A DNA stretch of 64,000 nucleotides, taken from contig CAVTRY010000011.1 in NCBI GenBank assembly GCA_963737265.1, positions 1,184,001 through 1,248,000 of the forward strand, in the 5' to 3' direction. The position numbers and the translations under genes are program-made. The notes below the pieces were generated by a model. That model had not been told where the DNA came from and did not search any database. It worked only from the letters and a program-made list of their open reading frames with translations. This stretch comes from an uncultured delta proteobacterium (GTDB lineage Bacteria; Myxococcota_A; Polyangia; Fen-1088). Within the stretch, counting starts at the first letter, position 1; the number at the start of each line of letters is the position of its first letter. Of the stretch, positions 1 to 14,964 are shown one piece after another.

Positions 1-370
1 TGACGACCATGCGGCACACGAGGGGCTCGATTTTTCCGAGAAGTGCCTCGACCTCGGCGCGGCTGACGACGGCCGGAAGCTGCTGCTTGACCCGTGGCCA
101 CGGGATGTTTTCGACCTCGGCGGGACGCTCCAGCGTGACCGCGTACAGGAAGTGCAAGCTGGCGACGTACAGTTTGATGGTGGATGGACTCTGCCCGCGC
201 TCGTGCTGCGCGAGCAGGAATTGCCTGATCTCGGGCATGCCCATCTCGCCAGGTGGGCGCATGAAATGCCGAACGAATTTCGTTGCGCACCACAGGTAGC
301 TTTCTTGCGTGCGAGGGGAGTACTCACGCAGCTTGAGATCGGACGCCATTTTCTCGTACAGTTGACCCAT
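1..370 (-). CDS. Tyrosine recombinase, N-terminal part (Phage_int_SAM_4-like domain), truncated by window edge; resembles integrases paired with IS91-like transposases
   Basis: Not in the ORF track. Manual translation from the ATG at 370 gives MGQLYEKMASDLKLREYSPRTQESYLWCATKFVRHFMRPPGEMGMPEIRQFLL...SPSTIKLYVASLHFLYAVTLERP...LPAVVSRAEVEALL. RBS AAGGAG lies upstream and the frame stays open to base 1. Confidence 0.85.
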   Translation of the reverse strand, partial: MGQLYEKMASDLKLREYSPRTQESYLWCATKFVRHFMRPPGEMGMPEIRQFLLAQHERGQSPSTIKLYVASLHFLYAVTLERPAEVENIPWPRVKQQLPAVVSRAEVEALLGKIEPLVCRMVV

Positions 371-472
371 GTTTCATCTCCTTGTGTCTGCCGGCGCCCG
401 CCCATCGGGCGCCGGTACTCACAAGGTCAACCACAGACAAGCAAGCTCCGAAACTGCCGCGCTAGCGGCTTG

Positions 473-546
473 GTTCAACAAGCCGTGGCACCTGACGATC
501 GGTCGCCTTCGGCGCCCGCTCGCAGGTGAACGCCAGGGCGTTGGGC
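473..546 (+). other. attC site 1 (R'' fused to recombinase-element terminus)
   Basis: GTTCAAC-AAGCCGTGGCACCTG...CAGGTGAACGCCAGGGC-GTTGGGC. Confidence 0.85.
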
Positions 547-561
547 GGACCAGGATCGATC

Positions 562-1090
562 ATGAACTCAGCAATTGTAAGCAAGCTGTTGACAGCCGGC
601 GACCGAGGTCGTCTCGAGGACCTGTGCCGCGAATGCACCGATTTTTTTTGAGCTCGTCGAGGGCCAGCCGGGTGGAAGTGAGACGGCAGCCGAGATTCTC
701 GGACCGCTTCCCTCGAACGTCACGTCTGGGGCAAAGAGCATCCTCGGTTTGGAGCGAGGCAAAGAGTTGATCGGTGTTGTGGAACTGTTGGCTGGATTTC
801 CACTGCCCAATGAGTGGTACGCAGGTTTGCTCCTCCTTCGGCCTGATGCCCGATGTTCCGGTGTTGGAACAACTGTCTGGGAAAACTTGCGGGAAAGGAT
901 GAAGATTGATGGCGCCGTGGCCACTCGACTCATCGTCCAAAAGCAGAACCCAGGAGCCAGACGATTTTGGGAACGGCAGGGCTTCGCTCTGGAGAAGGAA
1001 ATCGTAGCGAAGGTCGGGAAGCTGGAGAGCCAAGCCTGGCAGCTTCGTCTTTCCTTCGAAGCGGCCGCCCAACAAGCCGTTGCAGACTGA
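562..1090 (+). pseudogene. GNAT-family acetyltransferase cassette, frameshifted in a T8 run (642-649)
   Basis: ATG 562 reads MNSAIVSKLL...CRECTDFF then stops. Removing one T joins it to the 749..1090 ORF, which has LLLLRPDARCSGVGT (motif A) and NPGARRFWERQGF. Confidence 0.8.
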
Positions 1091-1138
1091 CGGTCGGCCG
1101 CAGACGGCCGCCCGCCGCTGAACGGCAAGGCGTTCGGC
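1067..1138 (+). other. attC site 2
   Basis: GCCCAAC-AAGCCGTTGCAGACTGACGG...CCGCTGAACGGCAAGGC-GTTCGGC. Confidence 0.92.
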
Positions 1139-1149
1139 GGACGCCGCGC

Positions 1150-1178
1150 TGGACGATGTTGTGAACATCGTTCATACT
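1150..1178 (+). promoter_or_regulatory. Putative TA promoter with palindromic operator
   Basis: TGGACG-17bp-CATACT. The palindrome ACGATGTT-gtg-AACATCGT (1153-1171) overlaps the spacer, and the ATG is 6 nt after the -10. Confidence 0.6.
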
Positions 1179-1184
1179 GAACGC

Positions 1185-1415
1185 ATGACGAAGCGCCTGC
1201 AGGCAATCGGAAACAGTGCCGGGATCATCATCGATCGGCCCATCCTCGACCTGCTCGGGATAACGCAGGATACTGACCTCGACCTCAAAACCGACGGGAA
1301 GCGACTGATCATCACCCCACTGGAGGGCGAGCGCTCCCGAGCAGGAAGGCTGGCAAAGGTACAGACGCGTGCACTGCGAAGGCATGCTGGGACATTCCGG
1401 AAGCTCGCGAAGTGA
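1185..1415 (+). CDS. AbrB/MazE-family antitoxin
   Basis: MTKRLQAIGNSAGIIIDRPILDLLGI (SpoVT/AbrB signature); overlaps the toxin start (GTGA). Confidence 0.88.
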   Translation: MTKRLQAIGNSAGIIIDRPILDLLGITQDTDLDLKTDGKRLIITPLEGERSRAGRLAKVQTRALRRHAGTFRKLAK

Positions 1416-1819
1416 AGACTGATACTGTCTTCCTGACGGTCAGCGAGGTGCTGGGTTTGCACTCCGACCAGATCCAAGAATTTGGTGGAGCTGCGGGGAT
1501 TCGGGACGAAGGACTCCTGGAGTCCGCAGTGGCCCAGGCGAGCACGACCTATGATGGCGAGTACCTGCACAACGGCCTATTTGAAATGGCGGCGGCGTAC
1601 GCGTTCCATATTGCGGAGAATCAGCCATTTCTCGACGGAAACAAGCGGACTGCCTTGAACGCCGCCATCGTCTTCCTGGGGCTGAACGGTTTTGATGTTG
1701 TAGATGACGAGGGCATGCTGTACGCCGCCATGATTGGCCTTAGCACCGGCGAATGGTCCAAGGGACGGATGGCAGCGCTGCTCGAACGTTTGTCGGAGCC
1801 GTGGAAAGACGCCATCTGA
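1412..1819 (+). CDS. doc: Doc/Fic-family toxin (death-on-curing)
   Basis: GIRDEGLLESA and NQPFLDGNKRTA (Fic motif with His replaced by Gln). Confidence 0.88.
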   Translation: MKTDTVFLTVSEVLGLHSDQIQEFGGAAGIRDEGLLESAVAQASTTYDGEYLHNGLFEMAAAYAFHIAENQPFLDGNKRTALNAAIVFLGLNGFDVVDDEGMLYAAMIGLSTGEWSKGRMAALLERLSEPWKDAI

Positions 1820-1828
1820 CTAAACGCC

Positions 1829-1879
1829 GCCGAACAAGACGTTGCAGACTGATGATCCCGCCGCAGGGACATTGGTGTA
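1829..1879 (+). other. attC site 3, left half only (interrupted by transposon)
   Basis: GCCGAAC-AAGACGTTGCAGACTGATGATCCCGCCGCAGGGACATTGGTGTA closely resembles the first half of the long attC at 5788/11954, then diverges. Confidence 0.75.
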
Positions 1880-1961
1880 ACATCAACGGGGCTTTGATCG
1901 CCAATTCGGTTTTCGGCCCGAATTGCCGTGCAGCCAAGATCAATGCCAGGCAGCGAGAAAA

Positions 1962-2246
1962 TCATCGTGCCGCCACCGGAAATTCTGCACCATGACCACA
2001 GTGCGGACACGCGCCGGGAGGAGGATACTTTCCCGCGATCAGATCGTCGAACGGAACCATTGTCAGTCGCGAAACCTGAAAGGCCAGGTTGACGCTCACG
2101 GGGACTCGCTTCTTCTTCACGTTGATCATGGAGCCCATTGCAAACCCTAGAACCTTCGATAGCACCTTCCACCCGCCGGTGCGAATGCGCAGGAAGCGCA
2201 AGGCTACCCTTACGTGCTCCTGCTCTTCGGAGGTCAGCCTCTTCAT
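1962..2246 (-). CDS. Small XRE-like HTH protein with C-terminal CPHCG motif
   Basis: MKRLTSEEQEHVRVALRFLRIRTGGWKVLSKVLG...GACPHCGH; ATGA overlap with the transposase stop. Confidence 0.65.
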   Translation of the reverse strand: MKRLTSEEQEHVRVALRFLRIRTGGWKVLSKVLGFAMGSMINVKKKRVPVSVNLAFQVSRLTMVPFDDLIAGKYPPPGACPHCGHGAEFPVAAR

Positions 2247-3481
2247 GCTGCAATCCTCGCCGAAAAGATCGGCTCGATGCCAAGCTCGCGCATGGCTTGC
2301 GCCAGCACGGCGAGGTTGTGGCACAAGATCTTGCAGAGGACTTCGTTTACCTGGGCGACGAACTTCTTGGAACGAACCGCGCCACCGAACTTCCTTTTGA
2401 CCGACGAGAAGACAGATTCGACATTCGACCGAAGGTGGTAGTGCGCCTGGAATTCGTCCTGACGGTAGATGAAGCAGCCCCACATCTTGCGCCACGACGC
2501 CGGGCCGCTTCCCTTGCTGTTGCTCTTGAAGGGGATGTAGGGAACCGCGCCAGCCGCTTCGACGGCGTCCAGGTTGGCACGCGAGAGATAGCCCTTGTCG
2601 GCCGACAGCTCGGCAACATCGAAGCGTTCCGCAGTCGAAGTGAGCAGCGCGGGAAGCTCCGGACAGTCGTTCGAGTTCGAGCCAGTGACCTTGATGGCGG
2701 TGACGATGCCGGTCTTGACTCCGACCATGGCGTGCGCCTTCAACCAAGCGTGTTCGCACATTTCCTTTCCGTACTTGGCGTCATACCAGCGGCGGTAGGT
2801 CGAAGTACCGAAGCCGGTCGAATCCACCGCGAAATTGCTCTCGATAGCGGCCAACGGGGCGGCGCTTTCCTCGATGAGCTTGATCAAGAGCGGCGCCATC
2901 TCGGCATTCTCGAAACGCTCGAACAGAGTGTTGAACTTGGGAGCCTTGGTGATGTGGCCGGCTTCGGCACACGCCTTGAGGTCGGTGCTGGCCCGGCGTC
3001 CACTGACCGTCGTGTAGATCTTCATGACCATCGCGTAGACGGCGTCAGAGAGTGGGATCGGCTTGGGGCCACGGCCGGTGTGCTCCGGGTTCTGGATGCC
3101 TTCGCAGAGGCCGTGCAAGAGATCCTGGACGATGCTCTTCTCGGAGCACTGGGCATCGTTGTAGTTCACCCAATCCTGGGTATATGTCTTGCGGGTCAGC
3201 GTGACGGACTCGGTGACGACCTGGGTACCGTCAGGCGTCGTCTCGATGGTCTTCGAGAGTTCGACGGCTTCCACGGCCCATATATGTTTGCACTTGCAGC
3301 GACGGGTTTCGTGGTCTGGGCAGGTGCAAGTTCCGGTCAGGGTGTTCACGAGATAGCCACCCGACGGCTGGGTCTGAGAGGGCACCATCCAAGTCATACC
3401 CGCGACCCGCTTGATGCGCTTGTCCGAGGAGAGAAGCAGTCCGCGCTCTTGCCGTCCGTCTTTCTTCATCGTCGATGTCAT
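2243..3481 (-). CDS. DDE transposase (DDE_Tnp_1-like) with N-terminal SWIM zinc finger
   Basis: SWIM motif CTCPD...CKHIWAV; catalytic-type motifs AVDSTGF, SADKGY and YHLRSNVESVFSSVKR. Confidence 0.9.
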   Translation of the reverse strand: MTSTMKKDGRQERGLLLSSDKRIKRVAGMTWMVPSQTQPSGGYLVNTLTGTCTCPDHETRRCKCKHIWAVEAVELSKTIETTPDGTQVVTESVTLTRKTYTQDWVNYNDAQCSEKSIVQDLLHGLCEGIQNPEHTGRGPKPIPLSDAVYAMVMKIYTTVSGRRASTDLKACAEAGHITKAPKFNTLFERFENAEMAPLLIKLIEESAAPLAAIESNFAVDSTGFGTSTYRRWYDAKYGKEMCEHAWLKAHAMVGVKTGIVTAIKVTGSNSNDCPELPALLTSTAERFDVAELSADKGYLSRANLDAVEAAGAVPYIPFKSNSKGSGPASWRKMWGCFIYRQDEFQAHYHLRSNVESVFSSVKRKFGGAVRSKKFVAQVNEVLCKILCHNLAVLAQAMRELGIEPIFSARIAA

Positions 3482-3483
3482 GT

Positions 3484-3564
3484 CTACAGTGTAGCCACAC
3501 CGTGGGCACACGTCAAGGAGAAAAAGAATGCTTGACCAAGATCCACATTGTGGCTACGCTGTAG
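3484..3564. promoter_or_regulatory. Back-to-back mirror promoters with shared 15-bp inverted operator
   Basis: Minus strand TTGACG-17-TACACT-6nt-ATG(3481); plus strand TTGACC-17-TACGCT-7nt-ATG(3568). Both -10 boxes sit in TGTGGCTACRCTGTAG. Confidence 0.7.
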
Positions 3565-3567
3565 CAC

Positions 3568-3780
3568 ATGAGCAAGAAGAGCCAGCCCAAGACGCACAGA
3601 GTCATGCCATCGGCAAAACCAGTCAAGGACGAGATGATCCGGATGCGGATACCTGAGGATCAGAAGGTGGCCCTGGAAGCTGTAGCGAGCGGAGAGGGGT
3701 TGGATCTGTCTACCTGGCTTCGGCAATTGGCCCTACGGACAGCGGGGCTCCTACCAGGGGTCAGGACGGATCAGCGCTAA
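3568..3780 (+). CDS. Ribbon-helix-helix (DUF1778-like) DNA-binding protein
   Basis: KDEMIRMRIPEDQKVALEAVASGEGLDLSTWLRQLAL. Confidence 0.75.
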   Translation: MSKKSQPKTHRVMPSAKPVKDEMIRMRIPEDQKVALEAVASGEGLDLSTWLRQLALRTAGLLPGVRTDQR

Positions 3781-5162
3781 TGGCGAACGAACGCCTTACG
3801 GAGAACATCGTTCGTGATCATCTTCGTCTCAAGGGAGGAGATGGGATCAAGGTTGAAGAACAGGCCAGCTTGGACCCTGTGATAGCGGCCGCTATGAAGA
3901 AGGCCAGCAAACACGGTGCTGGCACCGGAAAACCAGAGTTCATCGTTACACATCAAGAGGCACCTGACGAAGTCATCTTGTTCGAGTGTAAAGCTGATTC
4001 CGGTTTTCATGAAAGCGCGAGACGACGCGCCGGACAGGATTCCACCCCGGCAGATATCACAGCTTGCGCCGTCGACGGTGTTCTACACTACGCCAAGATC
4101 CTAGCCGCACATCGCAACGTGATCGCCGTTGCGGTAAGCGGCCAAAAGAAATCGGAACTTCGCGTTTCCACCTATCGCTGTGTCAAGGGTGCGGATACCC
4201 CAGAACCTCTACTAGAGGCGGATGGACGCCAAGTTGAACGACTGCTTTCTGTCAAGGAATACCTTCATCTGTTTAGAATGGATCGAGCCGTTATCCACCA
4301 AAATGTGGATCAGTTGATGGCACACACACGAGAGGTGCATAATTTTCTTCGTGACTACGCAAAAGTAACCGAGGCCGAAAAACCGCTTGTCATTTCGGCC
4401 ATCCTGTTGGCTCTTCAGCATCAAGCGTTCAAGAAGTCATGGAGCGTAACGACCGACCAAGATCTAGCCACAGCAACCTATGAGGCCGTAGAGAAGAGTG
4501 TACGACGGGCCATCAACGCATCGAAGCGCGAACTGATGATGGCCGCCTACTCTTTCTTAAAGACGCACCCAGAACTAACAAAGGAACGAACCCTCCACCC
4601 GAAGGGCCAACCCGCCATTGAGCAATCGCCGCTTCGTTATCTCATCCAGGACATCGAAGCTCAGGTCTTACCGTTCGCAGAGATGTACCCAGACTTCGAT
4701 GTAATCGGGCAGTTCTACGCGGAATTTCTGCGGTACACCGGCGGGGATGGCAAGGGACTCGGCATTGTGCTTACGCCTAGGCATCTGACCGAATTATTCG
4801 TCGAGATCTCTCAGGTGAACAAGAAGGACACGGTGCTGGACCCGTGTGCTGGAACCGGCGGGTTCCTCATTTCCGCGATGATGGCTATGGACCGCCAGGC
4901 GCGCGGAGACGAGGAGATGAAGAAGGCAATTCACGAAAATCAGATCATCGGTGTTGAGCAAAGATCCGACATGTTCGCGTTGTGTGTATCGAATATGGTG
5001 CTCAGGGGTGACGGACGATCAAACCTTCACCGTGGTGACTGCTTCGATTCTGCAATTGCGGACCAGATCAGCAGTCCGTCGCGTGCGAAGATGCATCGAC
5101 CAAACAAGGGACTTCTTAATCCCCCATTCGCTCAGCGTGGTGAAGATCAGCATGATGCATGA
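3780..5162 (+). pseudogene. BcgI-alpha-like restriction endonuclease/N6-adenine methyltransferase, C-terminally truncated
   Basis: PEF...FECK nuclease-like motif, GIVLTPRH, motif I VLDPCAGTGGFL and motif IV NPPF. The ORF stops about 9 codons after NPPF, at a junction. Confidence 0.8.
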
Positions 5163-5370
5163 TCCGACGGAACTGCTCAAAGTCGCCGAGCTTTCAGGAC
5201 TCCTCGACGCGGCCAGCAGTGCGGTGCAAACAAACTGGGCGACCGTGAAGGACTGGAAACTTGAATCGCGCTACACTCGTTCGGTGAATCCCGCCACCGT
5301 CATCGCCTTTCTCGACGCGCTTGATCATCCCACGGATGGGGTACTTCCATGGCTTCGCAGTCACTGCTAA
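5158..5370 (+). pseudogene. C-terminal fragment of a HEPN-domain protein
   Basis: HDPTELLKVAELSG...NWATVKDWKLESRY...GVLPWL pattern; N-terminus missing. Confidence 0.6.
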
Positions 5371-5759
5371 ACGCTCAGGTTGAGCAGGGAAAGACGACCT
5401 TGTCCGCATTGGATGCGGCGGGTCTGGACGTCCGCGCGGCCTTCTGGATATTTGATGAGGAGAGCCAGACGTGGCGCTTCACGGTAGCGGAGCCAACAGT
5501 CGACACGAGGGGAACCCACGCGCTGTATGAGCTGATGGCTCGGGGTTTGGCCGGACAATCGGATGCGCTTCCCCTCCGTGAGATCTACGTGGTCTCATCG
5601 GATGACCAACTCGTTTCGCTCGTTCGAATGGCAATCGCCACACCCGGAAATGCGATCAGCGGGATCACCTTTTCCGGCAACGTCGTCATGGGAAACAGGA
5701 TCCCTGACATGTTCATCTACCGGATGTACAGGCCCCCAATCGCTAGAGCGGCCCCGTAG
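5349..5759 (+). CDS. Hypothetical protein, probable partner (antitoxin-like) of the HEPN gene
   Basis: 136-aa ORF (LDAAGLDVRAAFWIFDEESQTWRFTVA...DMFIYR) overlapping the HEPN 3' end and ending just before attC4. Confidence 0.7.
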   Translation: MASQSLLNAQVEQGKTTLSALDAAGLDVRAAFWIFDEESQTWRFTVAEPTVDTRGTHALYELMARGLAGQSDALPLREIYVVSSDDQLVSLVRMAIATPGNAISGITFSGNVVMGNRIPDMFIYRMYRPPIARAAP

Positions 5760-5787
5760 CCAGAGGGCTCCACGGGCCGCGCGAGCC

Positions 5788-5891
5788 GCCGAACAAGCCG
5801 TTGCAGCTGTCAATCCCGCCGCCGGGACATCGTGTAGAATCGAGGCGCCGACTCGGCGGCGGGCTTGCAGCTGAACGGCAAGGCGTTCGGC
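5788..5891 (+). other. attC site 4 (long type)
   Basis: GCCGAAC...CCCGCCGCCGGGACATCGTGTAGAATCGAGGCGCCGACTCGGCGGCGGG...GTTCGGC; nearly identical to 11954-12058. Confidence 0.92.
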
Positions 5892-6102
5892 GGACGACGG
5901 ACGAGTCTCGGCGAAGAAGATGCGACGAAGCATTCTATTGTGCTGAACCGGGGGCGAGGGCGCCATCTCGCACTCCATGACGGTGGTGTCACGGTTGCGT
6001 CTTGGACGGCTACGCAACCCTTGAGGTTTGCCATGGCGCCTGCTTTGCGTAGGGCGCTCGAGAACACTGGAGACCAGAGACACGTTACGAAAGGCTTCAA
6101 CG

Positions 6103-6999
6103 ATGAGGAACACTGAAGTGCCGAGCCCTGTTGCCAATGATGGAAGTATCATCCGCATTACCAAGGGAAGATCGACTGGCTGTGGCCGTAGGCTGCACCA
6201 TGAGCCATCCACGGGCTCGCTTTGGGCAATCGGTTGCCTGCTTGTCGCGGGGTGGGCTTGCAGCAAGTCCGGAGGATCGTCCCAACGAGACGCGACGATC
6301 GATGCCGTGATGCCCTCAGGCGGAACAGCGGGTTCCACGATTCCGGGCGAGGTCGGAGGTACCACGCCCTCTGGGGGAGCCGCGGGCGCCAGCATGGGAG
6401 GGAACTCCGACTCGGACGCGCGTGCGGGTGGTTCAGGCGGCATCGGTGGCCTGCCTGGCGGCGGGGGCGCTCAAGGCACAGGTGGAATCGCCCCAACGGG
6501 CGGTACGATAGCGACTGGAGGAATTCAGGCGACAGGAGGAATCGCTGCAAGCGGCGGCACGTTGAATGCTGGCGGAACGCAGTCCACTGGGGGTATCGGT
6601 TCCACAGGCGGAATTCTGGGCACTGGAGGAATCACTACTCACGATGCAGCCGCGGACGTCAGCCAACTGATCAACGAAGCCGGCAATCCAATCTGTGGAG
6701 ACACGCTCTGTGGAACAGCCCAGTACTGTTGCAACAGCCCTTGCCAGCAATGCATGCCGAGCCCTGACACGTGCTCATTGCTCGTCTGTGGAACCGCAGA
6801 CGGCGGCACCTTCGATTCCTACCCCTCCGACTGCACTGCTGGGTACTCCGGAGACTCCACCTACTGCGGGACGTCCGCCACAACACCCCATTCCATCCAC
6901 TTCTACCAGTGTTCGACCAGCGTGTTGGCTCTGCCCTGTCGGAAGTTGTCGGTCGGCACAACTGGCGGCGCCTTTTGCTGCCCGGGAGCGACGTACTGA
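6103..6999 (+). CDS. Putative lipoprotein with Gly/Thr-rich linker and Cys-rich C-terminal domain
   Basis: Hydrophobic stretch ending LVAGWAC, xxTGG repeats, and about 14 Cys in the C-terminal ~100 aa. Start codon uncertain. Confidence 0.7.
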   Translation: MRNTEVPSPVANDGSIIRITKGRSTGCGRRLHHEPSTGSLWAIGCLLVAGWACSKSGGSSQRDATIDAVMPSGGTAGSTIPGEVGGTTPSGGAAGASMGGNSDSDARAGGSGGIGGLPGGGGAQGTGGIAPTGGTIATGGIQATGGIAASGGTLNAGGTQSTGGIGSTGGILGTGGITTHDAAADVSQLINEAGNPICGDTLCGTAQYCCNSPCQQCMPSPDTCSLLVCGTADGGTFDSYPSDCTAGYSGDSTYCGTSATTPHSIHFYQCSTSVLALPCRKLSVGTTGGAFCCPGATY

Positions 7000-7068
7000 A
7001 GCACGGGACAAGATCCGAATGGAATCGATCACTGGAAAGCAGCTCACTTTGACCTGCGCTCTGACGCC

Positions 7069-7123
7069 GTCGAACAAGCCGTTGCAGACTGATGGTCGGC
7101 CGCGGACGGCCGCTCGCAGCTTA
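7069..7123 (+). other. attC site 5, left part (right part at 8613-8631)
   Basis: GTCGAAC...CGCTCGCAGCTTA | IS | TTAACGGCAATC-GTTCGAC reconstitutes an attC like the right part of attC9 (12781-12831). Confidence 0.85.
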
Positions 7124-7144
7124 GGCGCCGTCAAGAATTAACAT

Positions 7145-8564
7145 TTACAGCTTACGTGCTCGCCTGGGATGGATTGTGTAGTTCCATTCACCGTGGAACG
7201 GCAACCGGGTGATACTGAGTTCCGCCAATTCCTCGTCAGTGATCCGTCGGCCGACTGGGTACTTGCGCCGATCGAGACGACACTGGACTGCGAGTCCCTT
7301 TGCTGTGGTCGTTCCTGCAATCAGGCCCACGATTGTCTCGTAGTCACGTAACGGCTCACCCCGCCAGTTCGACGAGATGAATGAAAAGAGCCGGTGCTCG
7401 ACCTTGTTCCATTTGCTCGTTCCTGGCGGAAAGTGGCACACCTTGATCGATAGACCGGTCTGATCGGAAAGTCGCTGCAGTTCGACCTTCCACAAGCGCA
7501 GCCTGTAGCCGTTGCTGCCGCCAGAGTCAGCCGTGACCAGCAGCTGGGTGGACTGAGGATACAAGTGCCTTCCTTCGTGCTGCCACCATCCGCGTATCGA
7601 CGCTACCGCGAACGCCGCCGTGTCGTGGTCGGTTCCGACATTCACGAATCCCGTGTTGCGTGCCATGTCGTAGATGCCATATGGGTACGCGCGGGGCACT
7701 GACGGATCCGGGAAGTCGTGGCCGTTCACCACGTCGGCAGTCCCGTTGAGTCGCCACTGCTGTCCGGCGTTTCGATAGTTTCCGACGAGTTCTTTCTTCT
7801 TGGTGTCCACCGAAATCACAGGGCACATCTCCGCCATCGTACGTCGCACCTCTCGATTGATGTGCCGAAACTGGGCATCGCGATCCGGATGATCCTCCCA
7901 GGGCCATCGCATCATCCTACATCGACGCAGGATCCATCAGAGTCTCGGCCATTTCTGGAAGGTTTTCCCCTGGGGTCGGTGCGCGCGCCGGTGTGCAGGC
8001 AGGTTCGGCAGCGCGCACGGGCGCGGAGACCGGCATAACTATCGGCATCTCCGCAAGATCACTTACAATTTAGATGCGTTGGCCCTGATGATCCTCCCCC
8101 TCTTCGGTCTTCCTGTTCCCCTGCAAGCTATAGTCCATGTCTCGTAGAAGTTGGGCAACCTTCTCGTGGCTTATTGGGTGGCGGCGCGCAGTCAACTCCA
8201 GAGCGAGGGCCCGAGTGCTCTTGCATGTCCACCGAAGCGGCGATTCCGGATCGCCGAGGGTAAGCGGCTCCACCAGCGACTCAAGCAGCCGCGGCAGCTC
8301 GGGATCGTATGTCACCAGTTTCGGGCGTCCGGCTCCCTTCCGTCGAACTCGCTCTCCATGCAGAGGTTTCTGTCGCAGTTCCTTCACGCCCTTCGTAATG
8401 GTCACCCGTGACAGGCCGCATGCGCGACTCACGAGACTCACGCCGCCATAGCCAATATTGGTGGCCTCCGCCGCCGCAAGCATACGCCGAGCACGCTCAC
8501 TCAAGTGTGGCCACACCAGACGGAACTTCCCTTTGAGACTTTGTGTCGGGTCCAATCGGCTCAA
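7145..8564 (-). pseudogene. ISAzo13 (Rhodopirellula-type) transposase split by a MITE
   Basis: GDPESPLRWTCKS, HPDRDAQF, ISVDTKKKELVG, TADSGGSNG and PPGTSKWNKVEHRLFS. Removing 7899-8097 restores TEEGEDHPDR in frame. Confidence 0.9.
7899..8087. mobile_element. 189-bp MITE with ISAs1-like ends
   Basis: 15-bp TIRs CAGGGCCATCGCATC / CAGGGCCAACGCATC and a 10-bp target duplication ATGATCCTCC (7889-7898, 8088-8097). Confidence 0.88.
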
Positions 8565-9063
8565 ATGGTACTGCGGCAGACGCTCATGTAAAGTTTATTT
8601 CTTGACGGCACCTTAACGGCAATCGTTCGACAATCGGGACCGCGACTTGGGGCGTTTGGAGTTCTGGCGGCGAAGGCCATTGCTGCTCGGTCGCAATTCG
8701 GCCTTCGCCCGACAACGATCTTCTCGGTTGGGGCGGTGGCCTCCAGGATTCTGGGCCGACTGTGAAGGGCATTGATCGCCGGAATTGCCCCGAAGGAGCT
8801 GCGACTCCGCCGCTGCAATCGGGGCTGTGCAGGCCACACGTTGGCGCCGACCGGCGTAGATTCGGCGCCGACATCACCACTCGGGCGACTGATCTCACGG
8901 TCGTGCTTCCGCGGGAACGCAGTGGCCGGCGTGCTGACGCCGAATATGGGCGACCATCGCAGGTTTTCGACAAGCGCGTTCTGCGTCCCCGCGGAAATCA
9001 TCTCGGCTTGTGGATGCGTCTCTGCCGCGATGGCCGGCCGAAGTTTGAAGGGGCGGTCCCGTT

Positions 9064-9226
9064 GTCGAACAAGCCGATGACGACGAAGGCCGTCAGCTCT
9101 CGGTCGGAGTCCAACTAGCCGGGGCCGCGCGGCTCAACAGATCAACGGTGGGCGCCGCGCGGCCCCGGCAGTGCTACTATCGAGCCGCCGGGACGGCCCT
9201 CGCCGCTTATCGGCAGATCGTTGGAC
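9064..9226 (+). other. attC site 6 (unusually long)
   Basis: GTCGAAC-AAGCCGATGA...TTATCGGCAGATC-GTTGGAC with an internal GCCGGGGCCGCGCGGC/GCCGCGCGGCCCCGGC stem. Confidence 0.75.
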
Positions 9227-9665
9227 GGACCGATCATCGGTGATTGAGAAATGAACCTCAGCACTTGCCAAAATCCCATTCACTGCTCCTCTGCGCTCTA
9301 CTTTCAGGATGCGGCACGGGCGGCGCATCCAAGAGCAGTGCCGCTCGCAGCTTCTCGGTGGACCCCAGCAGCAGATATTGGCGCGCTGGCGCGCCAATTG
9401 GGTCTCTGTAGACGGCGGACGACTTCCGTCGTGATCTGACGGTCGACAGCGTTACCGCTTCTTGCGTTGGGCCGAACGGAATCCCGGGAGGGCTCGTGAT
9501 CGTGGTCGAACGGGTGCGTCCCGCGCCTCGAGTCAGCGGTGATGTGCAGCTCGCAGCAGCAGCGCCTTGGACGGATGCGTGTCACTTTGGGCTTGCACCT
9601 CCGCTACTAAGCGTTACTATGTACCTGTAGTCAGTGACGTTAAGTAGATCATCAAGGAGCTGTTC

Positions 9666-9995
9666 GTGGGCAAGCAAATAACGGAAATGCTTAAGGGAAT
9701 CCTAGAGGGCATCGTCCTCGCGATCCTGTCTGTGCGGCCCGCGTACGGCTACGAGATCACGGCGCGGCTTCGAGCGCAGGGCTTCTCCGACATCGCCGAG
9801 GGCACCGTCTACGCCCTGCTCGTCAGGATGGAGCAGCGCGACCTCGTCGACGTGGAGAAGGTCCTGTCCGAGAAGGGACCGCCGCGGAAGGTGTACTCGC
9901 TCAACGCTCGGGGGCGGGAATACCTCGAAGAGTTCTGGAGAACCTGGAGCTTCCTCGCTGAACGCCTGGAACAGCTCCATGAAGGAGGCAGATGA
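9666..9995 (+). CDS. PadR-family transcriptional regulator
   Basis: EMLKGILEGIVLAIL...YGYEI...EGTVYALLVR...GPPRKVYSL. Confidence 0.92.
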   Translation: MGKQITEMLKGILEGIVLAILSVRPAYGYEITARLRAQGFSDIAEGTVYALLVRMEQRDLVDVEKVLSEKGPPRKVYSLNARGREYLEEFWRTWSFLAERLEQLHEGGR

Positions 9996-9996
9996 C

Positions 9997-10392
9997 ATGT
10001 TCATTTCAAAGTTCATAGCGAAGGTGATTGGCGAGAAGGGGCAATGGCGGCAGTACAAAGCGCGCGCAAGACAACTTCCCGCGAGCTATCGCACGGCAGT
10101 TGAGGCGCTGGAGCGGTACCTGATGTACCTCGGGGGCGGGGATGACGGGACTGCGATTTTCGCGGACCTCGTCGACCTGTTCGAACAGAGCGCGGCGAAC
10201 CGGACCCCGATCCGCCAGATCGTCGGGGAAGACCCCGTCGAGTTCATCGAGACGTTTGTCCGAAACTACCCGAACGGTCAGTGGATCACCAGGGAGCGAG
10301 AACGGCTGACCAACGCCATCCAGCGCGCCGCCGAAGAAGAAGCGAGAGAAGCGAGCTCAAATCCTCTGGAAAAGAAAGGCGGGGAAAAATGA
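9997..10392 (+). CDS. DUF1048-family protein
   Basis: EKGQWRQYKARARQLPASYR...DLVDLFEQSAA...IVGEDPVEF; the usual PadR neighbour. Confidence 0.85.
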   Translation: MFISKFIAKVIGEKGQWRQYKARARQLPASYRTAVEALERYLMYLGGGDDGTAIFADLVDLFEQSAANRTPIRQIVGEDPVEFIETFVRNYPNGQWITRERERLTNAIQRAAEEEAREASSNPLEKKGGEK

Positions 10393-11633
10393 TTCGGACG
10401 ACGAGCGAAACACTCTTGCGGGGACACGTCGAGGACGGCTGGGGGAAGGTGGCCGATGTCTTCCGGGCGAACTTCGAAGGGAGCCCCGGAGAGGTCGGCG
10501 CGGCGTGCTGCGTCTACGTGGACGGCCGCCCCGTCGTCGACTTGTGGGGCGGCCTCGCCGACCGAGACACGAACCGGCCGTGGGACAGGGACACCATCGT
10601 TGCCGTCGCATCCACGACCAAAGGCGCCGCCGCGATCTGCGCGCATCTGCTGGTCCAGCGAGGCAAGCTGGATCTGGACGAACCGGTGGTCAGGTACTGG
10701 CCGGAGTTCGGCGCTGCCGGCAAGGAGCAGATTCCGGTGCGCTGGCTGCTCTCACACCAGGCCGGCCTGCCGATCGTCGACGGACCGCTGACCTTCGAGG
10801 AGGCCTGCGCTTGGCATCCGGTAATCCGGGCGCTCGAGGCGCAGAAGCCGTTGTGGCAGCCGGGCACCGAGCACGTCTACCACAGCATGACCTTCGGGTT
10901 CCTGGTCGGAGAGCTGGTACGGCGGATCACCGGCAAGTCGCTCGGCACGTTCTTCGCCGAGGAGATCGCCGCTCCGCTTGGGCTGAGCGCCTGGATCGGG
11001 CTGCCCGAGGAGCAAGAGGGACGGGTGGCCGGGGTCGCGTACGCCGCTCCGTTCACGATGGAGGAGATGACCGCCGGGATGATCGAGACCACTGGCCTCG
11101 ATAGGGCCACGGTCATCGCCTGGATGAACGCCGTGTGGAGTCCGGACTCCGTGCAAGCCCGCGCCGGCGTGCTCGGCGGCGCTCTCGATCCCGCCAGCGG
11201 TTACATGAACACGCGGGCCTGGCGCGCTGCCGAGTTCCCGGCCGCGAACATGTGGGCGGACGCTCGATCGCTGGCCCGCATGTATGCGGCCACGGTGAGC
11301 GAGGTCGACGGCGTGCGGCTGCTGGAACCAGCCACGGTCGAGAGAATGATCGTCGTCCAGACCGACAAGACACGGATGAACGGCCTGCCGCCGGGACTCG
11401 ATATTCCGGCCAACCGCTCCTTCTACATGTCGCTCGGGTTCTGGCGGGCATGCCCACCGATGCCCTGGGCCGGGCCGCGCTCGTTCGGCCACCCCGGCTC
11501 CGGCGGATCGGTCGCCTTTGCCGAGCCCGATGCCGGTGTCGGCTTCGGCTACGTGACGAATCTGTGGTCATTCAGGATTGGCGAACCGCGCGCGTCGAAC
11601 CTGGCCGCGGCGGTCGTGGCCTGCCTCGGGTGA
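10389..11633 (+). CDS. Serine hydrolase, beta-lactamase-related (family VIII esterase-like)
   Basis: STTK (SxxK), LLSHQAGL, YHSMTFG and FGHPGSGG. Confidence 0.9.
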   Translation: MIRTTSETLLRGHVEDGWGKVADVFRANFEGSPGEVGAACCVYVDGRPVVDLWGGLADRDTNRPWDRDTIVAVASTTKGAAAICAHLLVQRGKLDLDEPVVRYWPEFGAAGKEQIPVRWLLSHQAGLPIVDGPLTFEEACAWHPVIRALEAQKPLWQPGTEHVYHSMTFGFLVGELVRRITGKSLGTFFAEEIAAPLGLSAWIGLPEEQEGRVAGVAYAAPFTMEEMTAGMIETTGLDRATVIAWMNAVWSPDSVQARAGVLGGALDPASGYMNTRAWRAAEFPAANMWADARSLARMYAATVSEVDGVRLLEPATVERMIVVQTDKTRMNGLPPGLDIPANRSFYMSLGFWRACPPMPWAGPRSFGHPGSGGSVAFAEPDAGVGFGYVTNLWSFRIGEPRASNLAAAVVACLG

Positions 11634-11745
11634 TGTATCACCTCCTCGCGTATGACGGGTCGTCTGAGTTGCTGAAGCTGGTCCACGTCCGGATGCTGGC
11701 CGAGGCAGGCGTCCCGCTGGCCGAGATCGGAGCCCTGCTCAACCG
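11634..11745 (+). pseudogene. MerR-like regulator fragment
   Basis: ELLKLVHVRMLAEAGVPLAEIGALL resembles the MerR helix region; N-terminal HTH absent. Confidence 0.45.
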
Positions 11746-11953
11746 TCATTTTTCGACGGATTCACATTGCGGTCTACACGTCCCCCAGCGATTTGCTCCG
11801 GAGGTGGAGTTTGTGTGGAGCATGACAGGCAACATTGTGTCGGAGGTCCACTCGTGGCTCGGCGGCGGACCGTTCAATGGGGCGGGCCTAGCTAGCGGTT
11901 ACGACGTACTGGATCCGACCGTGCGGATGCAACCTCACGATCTCTTCGCGGCC

Positions 11954-12058
11954 GTCCAACAAGCCGTTGCAGACTGACAATCCCGCCGCCGGGACATCGT
12001 GTAGAATCGAGGCGCCGACTCGGCGGCGGGCTTGCATCTGAACGGCAAGGCGTTCGGC
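11954..12058 (+). other. attC site 7 (long type)
   Basis: GTCCAAC...GTTCGGC; near-identical to attC4. Confidence 0.92.
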
Positions 12059-12108
12059 GGACGTGTCATCGCGGGGACCATACGTCGGCGATGTGCTATT
12101 CTTCCACC

Positions 12109-12309
12109 GTGCTAGCAACGAAGCAAAGGGTGAAGGATCTTCTCGATCGGCTGCCTGATGATTGCAGCCTTGAGGATGTCGTCTACCATCTGTACGTCAT
12201 TCAGAAAGTCGAGGCCGGGCTTGCTGACGTGGATGCCGGCAGGCTGATCCCCCACGATGTTGTCGCTGCGGAGCTTCGTCGTAAGTGGCTGGCGGGAAGC
12301 GAGCAGTAG
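12109..12309 (+). CDS. Putative antitoxin
   Basis: LLDRLPDDCSLEDVVYHLYVIQKVEAGLADVDAGRLIPH; overlaps the RelE/ParE gene. Confidence 0.8.
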   Translation: MLATKQRVKDLLDRLPDDCSLEDVVYHLYVIQKVEAGLADVDAGRLIPHDVVAAELRRKWLAGSEQ

Positions 12310-12596
12310 TTTGGACTCCCGCCGCGCGGGACTGTCTCGACGAGGCATTGCAGTTCATCGCGGCCGATTCACCAGCCGCAGCTGCAAAGGTTCTGGAAGT
12401 CGTGCTTGCCGCTGCGGAATCATTGTCGGTCTTCTCCGAACGCGGTCGCATGGTCCCGGAGATTGGGAGCCGGTCCGTCCGCGAGATCTTCGTCTATCGG
12501 TTTCGGGTTATGTATCAGGTCTCGTCGCGGGAGGTGTGTATTCTCGCGGTCTTGCACGGAGCGATGGACTTCGATCGATGGCTTCGACACACGTAG
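12285..12596 (+). CDS. RelE/ParE-family toxin
   Basis: VVWTPAARDCLDEALQFIAADSPAAA...GRMVPE...VREIFVYRFRVMY...ILAVLHGA. Confidence 0.9.
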   Translation: MAGGKRAVVWTPAARDCLDEALQFIAADSPAAAAKVLEVVLAAAESLSVFSERGRMVPEIGSRSVREIFVYRFRVMYQVSSREVCILAVLHGAMDFDRWLRHT

Positions 12597-12600
12597 CGCC

Positions 12601-12666
12601 GCCGAACAAGCCGTTGCAGTCGACGGTCGCCTTCGGCGCCCACCGCTTAACGGCAAAGCATTGGGC
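12601..12666 (+). other. attC site 8 (R' mutated GTT>ATT)
   Basis: GCCGAAC-AAGCCGTTGCAGTCG...CTTAACGGCAAAGC-ATTGGGC. Confidence 0.8.
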
Positions 12667-12685
12667 GGACCTACTCTCTCGGCGG

Positions 12686-12712
12686 GCTGCTAGTCTAGCG
12701 GCTTGGTTCAAC
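12686..12712. repeat. Second copy of the recombinase-element terminus
   Basis: GCTGCTAGTCTAGCGGCTTGGTTCAAC; shares CTAGCGGCTTGGTTCAAC with 462-479. Confidence 0.8.
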
Positions 12713-12831
12713 ATGCCGTTGCAGCTCTCGTAGGCAGTGCAAGTAAAAAGAACAGGGAGTGATTCGGGTCGTCTGGGCACAGATGGTCGGCCGCGGACGG
12801 CCGCTCGCAGCTTAACGGCAAAGCGTTAGGC
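12706..12831 (+). other. attC site 9
   Basis: GTTCAAC-ATGCCGTTGCAGCT...GCAGCTTAACGGCAAAGC-GTTAGGC. Confidence 0.8.
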
Positions 12832-12849
12832 GTATTCCACGGAGTTCAA

Positions 12850-13182
12850 ATGGTCAGCTGCTATTTGCGATATGTCATTGATCCTCACAAGCTTCCCGAA
12901 TTTGAAGCGTACGCGAAGATGTGGATCCCGTTAGTCGAGCGGTTTGGTGGTCAACACCACGGCTACTTTCTTCCACACGAGGGCCCCAACAACATCGCAA
13001 TAGCACTGTTCAGCTTCCCGAGCTTGGCTGCCTACGAGGACTACAGGCGTAAGGCAGCGACTGATCCAGAGTGCCAGGCAGCCATGTCCTACTACAGGGA
13101 GACACGCTGCTTTCTGAGCTTTGAACGCAGTTTCATGCGCCCGGTGCTCGGGGAAGGAAACGCCCAACAAGTAGGCGTTTGA
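12850..13182 (+). CDS. NIPSNAP-family protein
   Basis: CYLRYVIDPHKLPEFEAYAKMW...HHGYFLPHEG...ALFSFPSLAAYEDYR; RBS GGAG. Confidence 0.9.
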   Translation: MVSCYLRYVIDPHKLPEFEAYAKMWIPLVERFGGQHHGYFLPHEGPNNIAIALFSFPSLAAYEDYRRKAATDPECQAAMSYYRETRCFLSFERSFMRPVLGEGNAQQVGV

Positions 13183-13254
13183 TCCGGCCGCAGCCATAGA
13201 TATTCCCCTGACTGGCTGAATTCGCGCGCGGCCGGATTGAACGTCTGGTTGAGC
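13162..13254 (+). other. attC site 10 (divergent type)
   Basis: GCCCAAC...AGGCGTTTGATCCGGCCGC / GCGGCCGGATTGAACGTCT...GTTGAGC hairpin. Confidence 0.65.
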
Positions 13255-13697
13255 CAAGCCGCGGGTTCGGGAGGAGAAGTGACTCTTCTGCCCATGGGCA
13301 AAGCAGGTCGACTTTTCGAGCAGCGGGGCGATCGGGACGATGCTTTTGCTGGGGTCGGAGGTTGTCGACGGTCGCGAGTGAACCGAGAAAACGAGAATCG
13401 TGCGTGCTCGAAGGCGCGGGAAACCCGTCGCCCACGACGAACGCACAGAGGTTTCCATGGCCGTCGAAATGAAGACGACAGCCTGGTTGCAGGCGACAGC
13501 TCCAAGCGAGAGGACATTCATGACGAGTCGAGCGGCGGGGCGCGCCCAATCTTGCTATGCCAGCGCGCGAATTCGACTGCCTCGGACTTCCAAGGCTTGC
13601 CTCATGACCTCAACCATCCGAACCGCCGGATGCGGACCCGCATGTCCGGTGGTGTGGGAGGGGCGCAGCGGGCAATTCCGCTGCCCCCTATCCCGAT
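13255..13697 (+). ncRNA. Class C group II intron remnant, ORF-less (5' boundary uncertain)
   Basis: Domain V GAACCGCCGGATGCGGACCCGCATGTCCGGTGGTG (CGC triad) and domain VI GGGAGGGG...CCCCCTATCCCGAT at 13620-13697. They are preceded by a residual IEP C-terminus NLAMPAREFDCLGLPRLAS*. Confidence 0.85.
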
Positions 13698-13762
13698 CAA
13701 GGCCTTGCGTCCGACGATCGGCCGCGGACGGCCGCTCGCGGGTGAACGCCAAGGCGTTCGGC
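13698..13762 (+). other. attC site 11, R'' replaced by intron 3' end
   Basis: CAAGGCCTTGCGTCCGACGATCGGCCGCGGACGGCCGCTCGCGGGTGAACGCCAAGGC-GTTCGGC. Confidence 0.75.
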
Positions 13763-13784
13763 GGACATCCGAAGCCACGCGAAT

Positions 13785-13831
13785 CCGGTACAGGCTAGAC
13801 CGGTACAGGCTAGACCGGTACAGGCTAGACC
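13785..13831 (+). repeat. 15-bp tandem repeat x3
   Basis: CCGGTACAGGCTAGA repeated three times exactly. Confidence 0.95.
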
Positions 13832-14830
13832 TGCCGGTGCCAAGCCCGACGTGCTACTATCCCCTTGGCCAGTTTGCGCATGAGCGCGACGGCCGCGCGC
13901 GGGGCGCGGCCACCGTCCCGCTGCCTTTTGCGCTGGTACCAGGCGTTGGCGATGGGGTCGGCCTGAATCCAGCGAAAGACGGCGAGCCACAGAAGCTGGC
14001 GCACGCGAGATGGGCCGCGCTTGGTGATCTTGATTTGGCCCTGCACGGTGCCGCTGCTCTTCTCCTTGAGGTTGAGGCCCATCGCCTTGAGGAAGGCGCG
14101 GGTGCCAGAGAACGACCTTGCATCGCCGACCTCGGCGAAGATCGCGGCGGCGGTGGTGTGGCCGACGACGGGCGCGAGAGCGGCGGCGGGCGTGGTGGCG
14201 GCGAGTTGGTCGACCTTAGTTTTGGCCGCGGCGAAGGCGCGATGTGCTCGATACCCCGTCGGCGATGGCCATCAAAGCGTCGCGTTCAAGGCCGACTAGC
14301 GGGACGCCGACGGATGTCCTGGCCGATGCGATGACGGCGGCGATCTTGTCGTCGGCAATGAGCCTGCGGCTGATACCAAGCAGAAGCTTGGTGGCCTGGT
14401 CCGGGGCAGCGGCGACAGCGGCTGGCCCGCCAATGCGCGCGAGCAGCGCCATGAGCGACGACGAGGTCAACTCGATCAGCGTGGGCAACTCAGGCCAGTG
14501 GCGAGCGAGCCAGCTTTCCAGGCGATGCACGAGCCGCAGATAGCGCTCCTGGTGCAGGTCCAAAATGGCGAGCGCTGCGTGGAGCTGGCGGCGTTCTGGA
14601 ACCTCGTCGGGCAGGCGGGTGGACAGGCCATCGGCGTGCAGCCTGGCGATGATGGCGGCAGCCTTGGCGTCGTGAAGACTGGGTACGCCGTCGAAGATTT
14701 CCTTGGCATCGTGGGTGCGCTTGCCGCTGACCATGAACACGGGGAATGCATACTCTTCGAGCTGGTGGCGAAGCACATCGCCGTAGGTGCCGGAAGGCTC
14801 CATCACGGTTTCGACGGTGATGCCAGCGGC
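13825..14830 (-). pseudogene. IS110-family transposase, truncated and internally deleted
   Basis: MEPSGTYG...SLHDAKAAAIIA (DEDD domain) and GLNLKEKSSG...ITKRGPSRVRQLLW...AVALMRKL (Transposase_20) lie in different frames. Confidence 0.85.
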
Positions 14831-14871
14831 GCGGAACCTGCGCCTTTTTCATCAACTACCTTTAGCTGAAT

Positions 14872-14917
14872 GTCGGCCGCAGACGGCCGCCCGCCGCTGG
14901 ACGGCAAGGCGTTAGCC
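14872..14917 (+). other. attC site 12, right half only
   Basis: GTCGGCCGCAGACGGCCGCCCGCCGCTGGACGGCAAGGC-GTTAGCC matches the right part of attC2. Confidence 0.75.
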
Positions 14918-14964
14918 CGAGCTCGGGAAATCGTCGCAAATAGTATCTCCTGTGATACCATAAG

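Follow-up and report, generated by a model that had tools for sequence, protein, structure and literature searches.

A decayed element of the IS91 family and the probable homing of its relatives to the R'' box of integron attC sites

Two kinds of mobile element, the IS1111-attC group of the IS110 family and the group IIC-attC introns, are known to home, always in one orientation, to attC, the recombination site of integron cassettes. Their enzymes are unrelated to those considered here, a DEDD transposase with a guide RNA serving the IS1111-attC elements and a reverse transcriptase with a ribozyme the IIC-attC introns. Here we describe an element that probably targets attC too, likewise in a fixed orientation, but with another insertion point in attC and with an HUH transposase and/or a tyrosine recombinase as its candidate enzymes. 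One of its ends lies at the left edge of the window, the whole stretch of 64,000 nucleotides that was analysed (G000:C11:1184001-1248000, from a genome of 6.55 Mb in 25 contigs with 63% G+C). We consider it probable that positions 1-479 of the window are the terIS end of a decayed IS91-family element, and that its clade inserts at the R'' box of attC, at the tetranucleotide YAAC. The element is probably a third kind of attC-homing mobile element, and its intact relatives look like an integron-specific parasite so far undescribed.

According to the available part of one account (PMC13181058), an IS91-family element has an upstream end, terIS, with a single subterminal palindrome beside the cleavage site, and a downstream end, oriIS, with palindromes. 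The tetranucleotide targeted beside oriIS has T as its second base, a similar one stands at terIS, no duplication is made, and an alternation of GTTC and CTTG is known for IS91 (PMC13181058, same part). Unlike IS91 and ISCR, in which the tetranucleotide is GTTC or CTTG, the present element uses GTTA or GTTG, which for the clade lies in an attC R'' box, and it has a gene for an IntI-like recombinase (int) upstream of its transposase gene (tnp). The same gene pair, with a recombinase that lacks the insertion specific to the integron integrase IntI, is found in the IS91 elements with an 'Integron-like' recombinase of Smyshlyaev et al. (10.1101/542381), where the available part of the text gives the IS91-borne recombinases, without this insertion, as the closest homologues of IntI. 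In the accessible part of another paper, an IS91-like element, ISShvi3, is mentioned in passing beside an attC in a Shewanella integron (PMC9229058). Neither account, in the parts available, describes attC targeting, the insertion point, the orientation rule or the hairpin formed by the joined ends. In the literature searched, with ISfinder, TnPedia and supplements outside its scope, attC targeting by IS91-type elements is undescribed beyond that one sentence, and no account of an R''-homing clade, of the fixed orientation or of the joined-end hairpin was found. ISShvi3 presumably carries a recombinase gene as well.

Anatomy of the element and of its end in the window

The ends were defined from three copies in one genome (G001) and four in another (G012). 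The G001 copies have 2.70-2.77 kb in common at 94.7-96.7% identity, with sharp boundaries; the G012 copies, 99% identical to one another, belong to a relative with 49% recombinase identity and have the same kind of ends. Over about 2.7 kb, int is followed by tnp, the gene of an HUH transposase with a zinc ribbon and a Y2 domain, and the oriIS hairpins come last. In an intact relative, the gene directly downstream of int matches Y2_Tnp (E 2.6e-52) and Zn_Tnp_IS91 (E 1.9e-28). Read in the gene direction, the left (terIS) end consists of GTTGAAC, one variable base, AAGCCGC and a small palindrome, and the right (oriIS) end of the inverse 15-mer, nested palindromes and ...AAACGCCTATTG, next to which stands GTTA or GTTG of the flanking DNA. 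There is no target-site duplication, the sole repeat across the two junctions being the triplet GTT. The tetranucleotide beside oriIS is GTTA in five and GTTG in one of the six intact clade copies, and GTTA in all three readable copies of G012. GTTT stands there in one outgroup copy, and some outgroup ends read CTTG, not GTTG. A zinc-ribbon plus Y2 transposase, unlike palindromic ends without duplication and a T-second tetranucleotide beside oriIS are features of the IS91 family, shared with IS91, IS801, IS1294 and ISCR. Judged by its sequence, the stretch 1-479 of the window is the terIS (int-proximal) end of such an element. The end and the attC behind it are made up as follows.

2-370, minus strand: first 123 codons of the int pseudogene, from the open reading frame list, with the frame open at the window edge
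371-390, minus strand: 5' leader of int, with a ribosome-binding site AAGGAG (378-383, minus strand), kept in seven aligned copies
391-400/406-415: perfect 10-bp inverted repeat with a 5-nt loop, by folding, just upstream of the int ribosome-binding site
456-469: terIS subterminal palindrome GCCGC-gcta-GCGGC, 5-bp stem and 4-nt loop by folding, conserved in all copies
465-479, minus strand: terminal 15-mer of the element, GCGGCTTGGTTCAAC on the plus strand, its ends set by comparing copies
470-479, plus strand: TTGGTTCAAC, whose AAC (477-479) leads straight into attC1, the first attC of the window
473-479, plus strand: chimeric R'' box GTTCAAC of attC1, the heptamer coming from the element and the junction lying within AAC 477-479
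480-546, plus strand: rest of the target attC, with L'', central part, L' and R' (GTTGGGC at 540-546), by nhmmer (E 6e-17 and 5e-18) and folding

About 95 bp inward of the oriIS end lies a second 15-mer, of which the terminal one at 465-479 is the inverted repeat. The stretch 371-470 folds far better than its shuffled versions (z -6.35 and -5.99 on the two strands, with 0 of 200 shuffles as good), and the hairpin at 391-415 is conserved in the clade (L034, L047-L051), with a few uncompensated changes. No run of T follows this hairpin. A promoter scan of 371-480 found no sigma-70-like promoter for int on the minus strand, and one terminator-like site per strand, which is the chance level.

The product of 2-370 matches Pfam Phage_int_SAM_4 (E 4.4e-15), and the extended int frame adds to SAM_4 a match to Phage_integrase over 5-136 of 172 positions. 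When the contig was extended leftwards, the frame remained homologous to a large family of 305-amino-acid proteins only up to residue 229. Of 812 candidate homologues, 377 proteins reached E <= 0.001, the best 120 being listed. Against the 305-amino-acid homologue P0002, int is 91% identical over residues 1-229 and 89% over residues 225-305, the latter found at C11:1174069-1174311, displaced 9.4 kb leftwards. On the IntI profile TIGR02249, with a cut-off of 265 bits, three intact homologues (P0002, P0011 and P0019) reach 188-192 bits, their match being broken into two stretches with the middle of the profile left out, the 229-residue N-terminal part of the window int scores 112 bits, and the genome's own intact IntI at C17:93509-94585 scores 456 bits. 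In the alignment with this C17 IntI, about 40 residues are absent exactly at the family-specific insertion of IntI. Since its family scores below the cut-off and lacks the insertion, the window int, to judge from these comparisons, is not an integron integrase IntI.

Three wider scans gave other proteins. A metagenome scan with the recombinase alignment returned 80 loci only 29-46% identical, which are not of the window recombinase's family, carry peptide patterns common to IntI and Xer and were set aside; a one-protein scan of genome contigs gave ten distant relatives at 23-59% identity, which were not used; and a plasmid collection gave 591 records, all below 60% identity and mostly from rhizobial plasmids, which are probably class 1 integrases.

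The window copy is dead, because int is split and carries H223R, at a column invariant in 29 of 29 homologues, and tnp is frameshifted and truncated. The split follows residue 227 and was made by a nested element with a duplication of about 6 bp:

L006 8312-17683 (C11:1174312-1183683), left of the window: nested insertion splitting int, with TTATGCCGAG-type ends

The nested insertion, of 9.4 kb, carries tyrosine-recombinase genes of the recombinase-in-trio type, and an IS21 istA/istB pair and an rve/AAA_22 pair interrupt it in turn. A further copy of this recombinase-in-trio-like element lies at C14:407412-410060. Directly after int residues 225-305 comes tnp, a Zn_Tnp_IS91/Y2_Tnp gene that is frameshifted and ends near residue 304 of 417, matching Zn_Tnp_IS91 (E 7e-32) and only positions 1-75 of 183 of Y2_Tnp.

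Insertion point within attC and the clade that uses it

The window copy and six intact copies (three in G001 and one each in G002, G030 and G080) stand in attC arrays in the same manner. The left end adjoins the L'' side of an attC, of short or long type, which differs among the copies, and the right end of the intact copies adjoins an R''-type heptamer (GGCTAAC three times, GCCTAAC, GCATAAC and GCCCAAC). When the intact elements were removed in silico at the repeated GTT, the R''-type heptamer met an L''-type start in all six. The restored sites were scored with an attC model specific to this lineage. Four of the six matched strongly (E 3.6e-18, 7e-17, 3.3e-11 and 1.2e-7) and one weakly (0.009), and four of the six folded as long, bulged hairpins of the canonical attC type. 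Among the restored sites of outgroup elements, none of five matched the model. In every case the element is antisense to the attCs, and attCs flank it on both sides.

GTTCAAC precedes unrelated attC bodies in the relatives, and the uninterrupted attCs of these arrays have other heptamers. From the comparison of copies, GTTCAAC at the R'' of attC1 is the element's own terminal heptamer, which has replaced that of the attC, and the element sits within R'', at YAAC on the array top strand, which is 5'-GTTR in the transposase direction. Because the copies differ in both flanks, they would represent separate insertion events and not one cassette shuffled by IntI, whose crossovers at R' could alter neither the attC body near terIS nor the heptamer near oriIS. 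The pattern of attC targeting, in which separate insertions into different attCs agree in position and direction, is present: the six intact copies, the window copy, the solo terIS ends and the three oriIS fragments described below all lie at R''.

The window genome has 57,202 GTTR sites on both strands as against 28 attC model matches, and the probability of finding seven of seven insertions at R'' by chance is about 5e-20, even allowing 100 attCs. There is a further preference within R''. In nine insertions (the six intact copies and three oriIS fragments in the window genome), the R'' left at the oriIS side reads TAAC six times, CAAC three times and GAAC never. The uninterrupted attCs read GAAC 14 times, CAAC five times and TAAC twice (Fisher p = 0.0009 for YAAC), counted over the 21 of 43 model matches whose R'' could be read by regular expression, four others being welded to element ends and 18 unread. 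Specificity of this sort is characteristic of IS91-type elements.

These data also bear on whether int and tnp might be the cargo of an ordinary gene cassette, moved by the host IntI through attC x attC recombination. Both flanking sites still look usable as attCs, and the unit lies between two GTT cores. However, the conserved unit includes the upstream hairpin (in array orientation) and excludes the varying downstream attC, and a cassette predicts the opposite; the crossover falls in R'' and not in R', the unit is antisense, the element's hairpin has no attC model match, and outgroup copies with the same ends stand outside arrays. An ordinary cassette is therefore very improbable.

The behaviour belongs to one branch of the recombinase family. 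In a tree of 29 recombinases, the seven attC-adjacent proteins and P0002, known here from its protein alone, form one clade with 100/100 support, and the other 21 fall outside it; the outgroup elements have the same kind of ends as the clade. Within the bacterial family, 7 of 89 genomes have close relatives (E <= 1e-90), and 36 of 401 genomes of the class have relatives at E <= 1e-55; none at E <= 1e-95 was found in 400 other genomes sampled from the phylum, with five candidates scored per genome in the class and phylum searches. Four public sequencing runs from soil or peat hold contigs of the element, and the loose left ends in them show other attC-type flanks. Joints in public runs between 2829-2833 and 5968-5974 link two similar attCs with other letters between them and are not read as excision.

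One G012 copy of the relative outside the attC clade (L052, G012:C37, about 2705 and 5455) occupies the middle (GTT|AAC) of a long, perfect palindrome, which consists of two inverted tRNA-like T-arm segments. Its position hints at a preference for hairpin-forming DNA in elements beyond the attC clade as well.

An earlier note on this DNA, made from the sequence by itself, had located the recombinase N-terminus, the two hairpins, the terminus TTGGTTCAAC and attC1 exactly where they stand in the sequence. Its view that the recombinase is not IntI agrees with the full protein family, and the Y2 transposase gene that it proposed to look for downstream is present after int, in the relatives and in the window genome. 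The attC-targeting IS91-like element lying reversed, which was one of its two proposals, is supported, the terminus adjoining an attC in every clade relative with a readable flank. Two further claims stood in part. The AAC of the terminus, read as the R'' of attC1, does run into the attC, but the heptamer GTTCAAC is supplied by the element. The terminus was also said to hold the CTTG and GTTC tetranucleotides of IS91. The likeness to IS91 is real, but the CTTG/GTTC logic needs correction: in the transposase direction the end is 5'-GTTG and the target on the oriIS side is 5'-GTTA or GTTG, that is, the YAAC of R'' on the array top strand.

Rolling-circle transposition and the possible part of the recombinase

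How, then, would such an element reach the R'' box? The best reading, we infer, is IS91-type rolling-circle transposition with an evolved targeting of attC R''. The Y2 transposase would nick beside oriIS, and rolling-circle replication would displace the gene-antisense strand as far as terIS. The displaced strand would then be joined behind YAAC in single-stranded target DNA, the YAAC lying 5' of the attC hairpin. Our best guess at the reason for the choice of target is that YAAC plus the attC hairpin resembles the element's own oriIS, a tetranucleotide plus a hairpin, and the recombinase may select the target or integrate a circle. The fixed antisense orientation would arise because the displaced strand is collinear with the array top strand. 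The anatomy and the tetranucleotide bias fit this mode of transposition, and over 10-14 nt the outer part of oriIS is similar to the L'' of some resident attCs. An attC-homing element of this third kind would be a natural means of finding out which strand of attC cells expose.

Several observations weigh against this reading. The attC model does not match the oriIS hairpin, so that the mimicry of attC by oriIS is a matter of architecture and of the 10-14 nt resemblance. Targeting of the lagging-strand template found no support, as the GC skew of C11, negative around 1.18 Mb except for the 1.15-1.20 Mb bin that holds the mobile-element nest, would make the array top strand the leading-strand template. 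The restored site of the G002 copy (L051) has no attC model match, and its flank was called an attC by eye only, the hidden Markov model, the hairpin score and the minimum-free-energy fold all failing; one G030 flank was likewise called by eye. The cut cannot be placed within the repeated GTT/AAC, where one after AAC, as made by a Y2 enzyme, fits as well as one at AA|C, as made by IntI. Neither the model nor a crude hairpin score places an attC in the flanks of outgroup elements, but as the model is lineage-specific, this negative is weak for genomes of other families. The lone exception by hairpin score (-17.7, in a non-clade member in G002) is that element's own oriIS hairpin, and the score is rough, having missed a good attC in L048 (-7.7), given L051 a value of 0 and left L047 and L049 unscored where the end motif departs from the regular expression. 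Members of the clade were found in one bacterial family only. Finally, the public-run contigs show no empty site and no circle junction, and the flanks of L048 have no cover in them.

There is also an integron-like alternative, in which the Y2 enzyme would only make a single-stranded circle and the element's recombinase would join its hairpin to a folded attC top strand, at AA|C of R''. The result would be a mirror image of the IntI reaction, which uses bottom strands and R'. The hairpin of the joined ends has a 15-bp base stem with GTTCAAC/GTTGAAC, an unpaired spacer, a second stem and a variable loop, and circle junctions built in silico fold into such an attC-like hairpin in six of six elements tested, two outgroup elements included. 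The junction triplet is the GTT/AAC of IntI, and the insertion point exactly mirrors the IntI crossover. A single-base bulge in the 5' arm is found both in the antisense strand of the element and in natural attC top strands. All six catalytic residues of the recombinase (R132, K157, H223, R226, H249 and Y258) are retained in 29 of 29 aligned homologues, and its subgroup is reported, in the available part of the text, as the closest relatives of IntI (10.1101/542381). Three observations disfavour this alternative. A bias for YAAC over GAAC is expected of an HUH enzyme that reads a tetranucleotide, not of an enzyme that needs only AAC; the CTTG at some outgroup ends is the alternation of IS91 and breaks the G of an IntI-type core; and the insertions of outgroup elements that share this hairpin are at plain GTTA, away from any attC. 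We regard the integron-like route as rather unlikely.

The element does resemble IntI and its cassettes in having a related recombinase fold, a GTT/AAC core and sites that are folded single-strand hairpins, and it is bounded as a cassette when read in its own direction. It is unlike them in the missing IntI insertion and sub-cut-off score, in a top-strand crossover at R'' and in having a transposase of its own. A doubtful extension of the alternative, which we hold to be unlikely, is that elements with an IS91 transposase and an IntI-like recombinase are in general single-stranded 'counter-cassettes', whose hairpin is recombined with the R'' of a top-strand attC. If it were true, the IntI/attC system and these transposons would have a common origin, and recombination at a transposon end-hairpin would have become cassette capture, or the reverse. 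As a simple two-gene system, an element of this third kind would make the origin of IntI/attC testable. With rolling-circle transposition as the preferred reading, we turn to the array in which the window copy lies.

The attC array, its integrase and the fragments of other copies

The array comprises about ten attC sites at 466-14920, all on the plus strand by nhmmer with a model built from five window sites, and its cassette open reading frames, on the plus strand as well, include a GNAT fragment and a Fic/Doc pair. There is no cassette gene and no attI between int and attC1. The array extends to the left of the element, with an attC at C11:1170828-1170909 (plus strand, E 2e-15). Its own intI is a C-terminal remnant at C11:1165080-1165457, 19 kb upstream, which matches residues 239-359 of the C17 IntI at 90% identity and contains one stop. 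Three integron loci are present in the genome, one with an intact intI and two with remnants:

C17:93509-104534: integron locus
C7:296126-303735: integron locus
C11:1165080-1198915: integron locus

In classical integrons, intI is divergent from the cassettes. In all three loci of this genome it is co-oriented with the attC top strands, so that here an integrase is not as a rule transcribed away from its array.

The earlier note had placed the recombinase in the position of intI, and the other of its two proposals was a non-canonical integron platform, in which this recombinase replaces IntI and 371-479 is the attI. The gene does diverge from the cassettes on its right and adjoins the first attC of the window. 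But attCs lie on both sides, as the site found to the left, where the note had suggested looking, makes plain, and int is a split pseudogene within a 2.7-kb mobile unit that has defined ends and of which a genome may hold as many as three copies. The remnant upstream is that of a true intI, and the intI genes of this genome point towards their arrays. The stretch 371-479, which would be the attI of such a platform, is the conserved end of a mobile element. The anatomy speaks decisively against a platform of this kind, and the gene is not in the intI position. The case is also a warning for annotation, as a gene of Xer/IntI type that faces away from an attC array need not be an integron integrase.

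Further traces of such elements occur in the same array:

12695-12712, minus strand: solo terIS scar of 18 nt, including an identical 15-mer (12698-12712), joined to an attC (E 4.7e-12)
13162-13544, minus strand: R''-type heptamer GCCCAAC (13162-13168) followed by an oriIS fragment of a second subfamily, by sequence comparison

Similar solo terIS ends of 15-30 nt, joined to attCs, lie in L050 (G030:C84, 2441-2456) and L189 (G023:C437, 1500-1514), and a terIS remnant lies in G085 (L196). Solo scars might have come about by deletion or by the action of IntI on hybrid sites. Insertions of these elements would erode and rewire arrays, each one swapping the R'' box and leaving a new hairpin that is seemingly usable as an attC.

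The oriIS fragment at 13166-13544 (379 bp) is 99.7% identical to a copy of about 1.4 kb on C13 (C13:567215-568628), which stands behind GGCTAAC, and a solo oriIS fragment of 125 bp on C23 (C23:17841-17960) stands behind GTCCAAC. All copies of the second subfamily keep the oriIS end and differ in their inner cut points (379 bp, about 1.4 kb and 125 bp), as would be expected if rolling-circle copying that starts at oriIS had been aborted. One and the same other repeat cuts both the C13 and the C23 copy.

The pattern of the terminal 15-mer, with N at position 8, gave 45 matches in 24 of the 89 family genomes, as against six for the reversed control. We examined 30 loci (31 matches), the remainder being mostly further G012 and G001 copies. 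Nine of the examined matches are clade-type left ends or bare 15-mers; behind them stands an attC model match in six cases (one weak), an attC called by eye in two and an R'-like remnant only in one.

Genes of other mobile elements are found nearby. Between the C11 intI remnant and the first attC, L006 885-4105 (C11:1166885-1170105) contains a transposase gene of the IS110 family and the reverse transcriptase/maturase gene of a group II intron; the IS110 and group II intron families each have known attC-homing members. The first cassette (window 526-1090) holds a GNAT acetyltransferase gene that is seemingly frameshifted close to eight consecutive T at about 643-650; in the 749-1087 frame, only profile positions 39-116 are covered by the Pfam match. 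Within the array, a DDE_Tnp_1 transposase gene (2243-3508, minus strand) and an N6 DNA methylase fragment (3780-5159) lie among attC-like sites.

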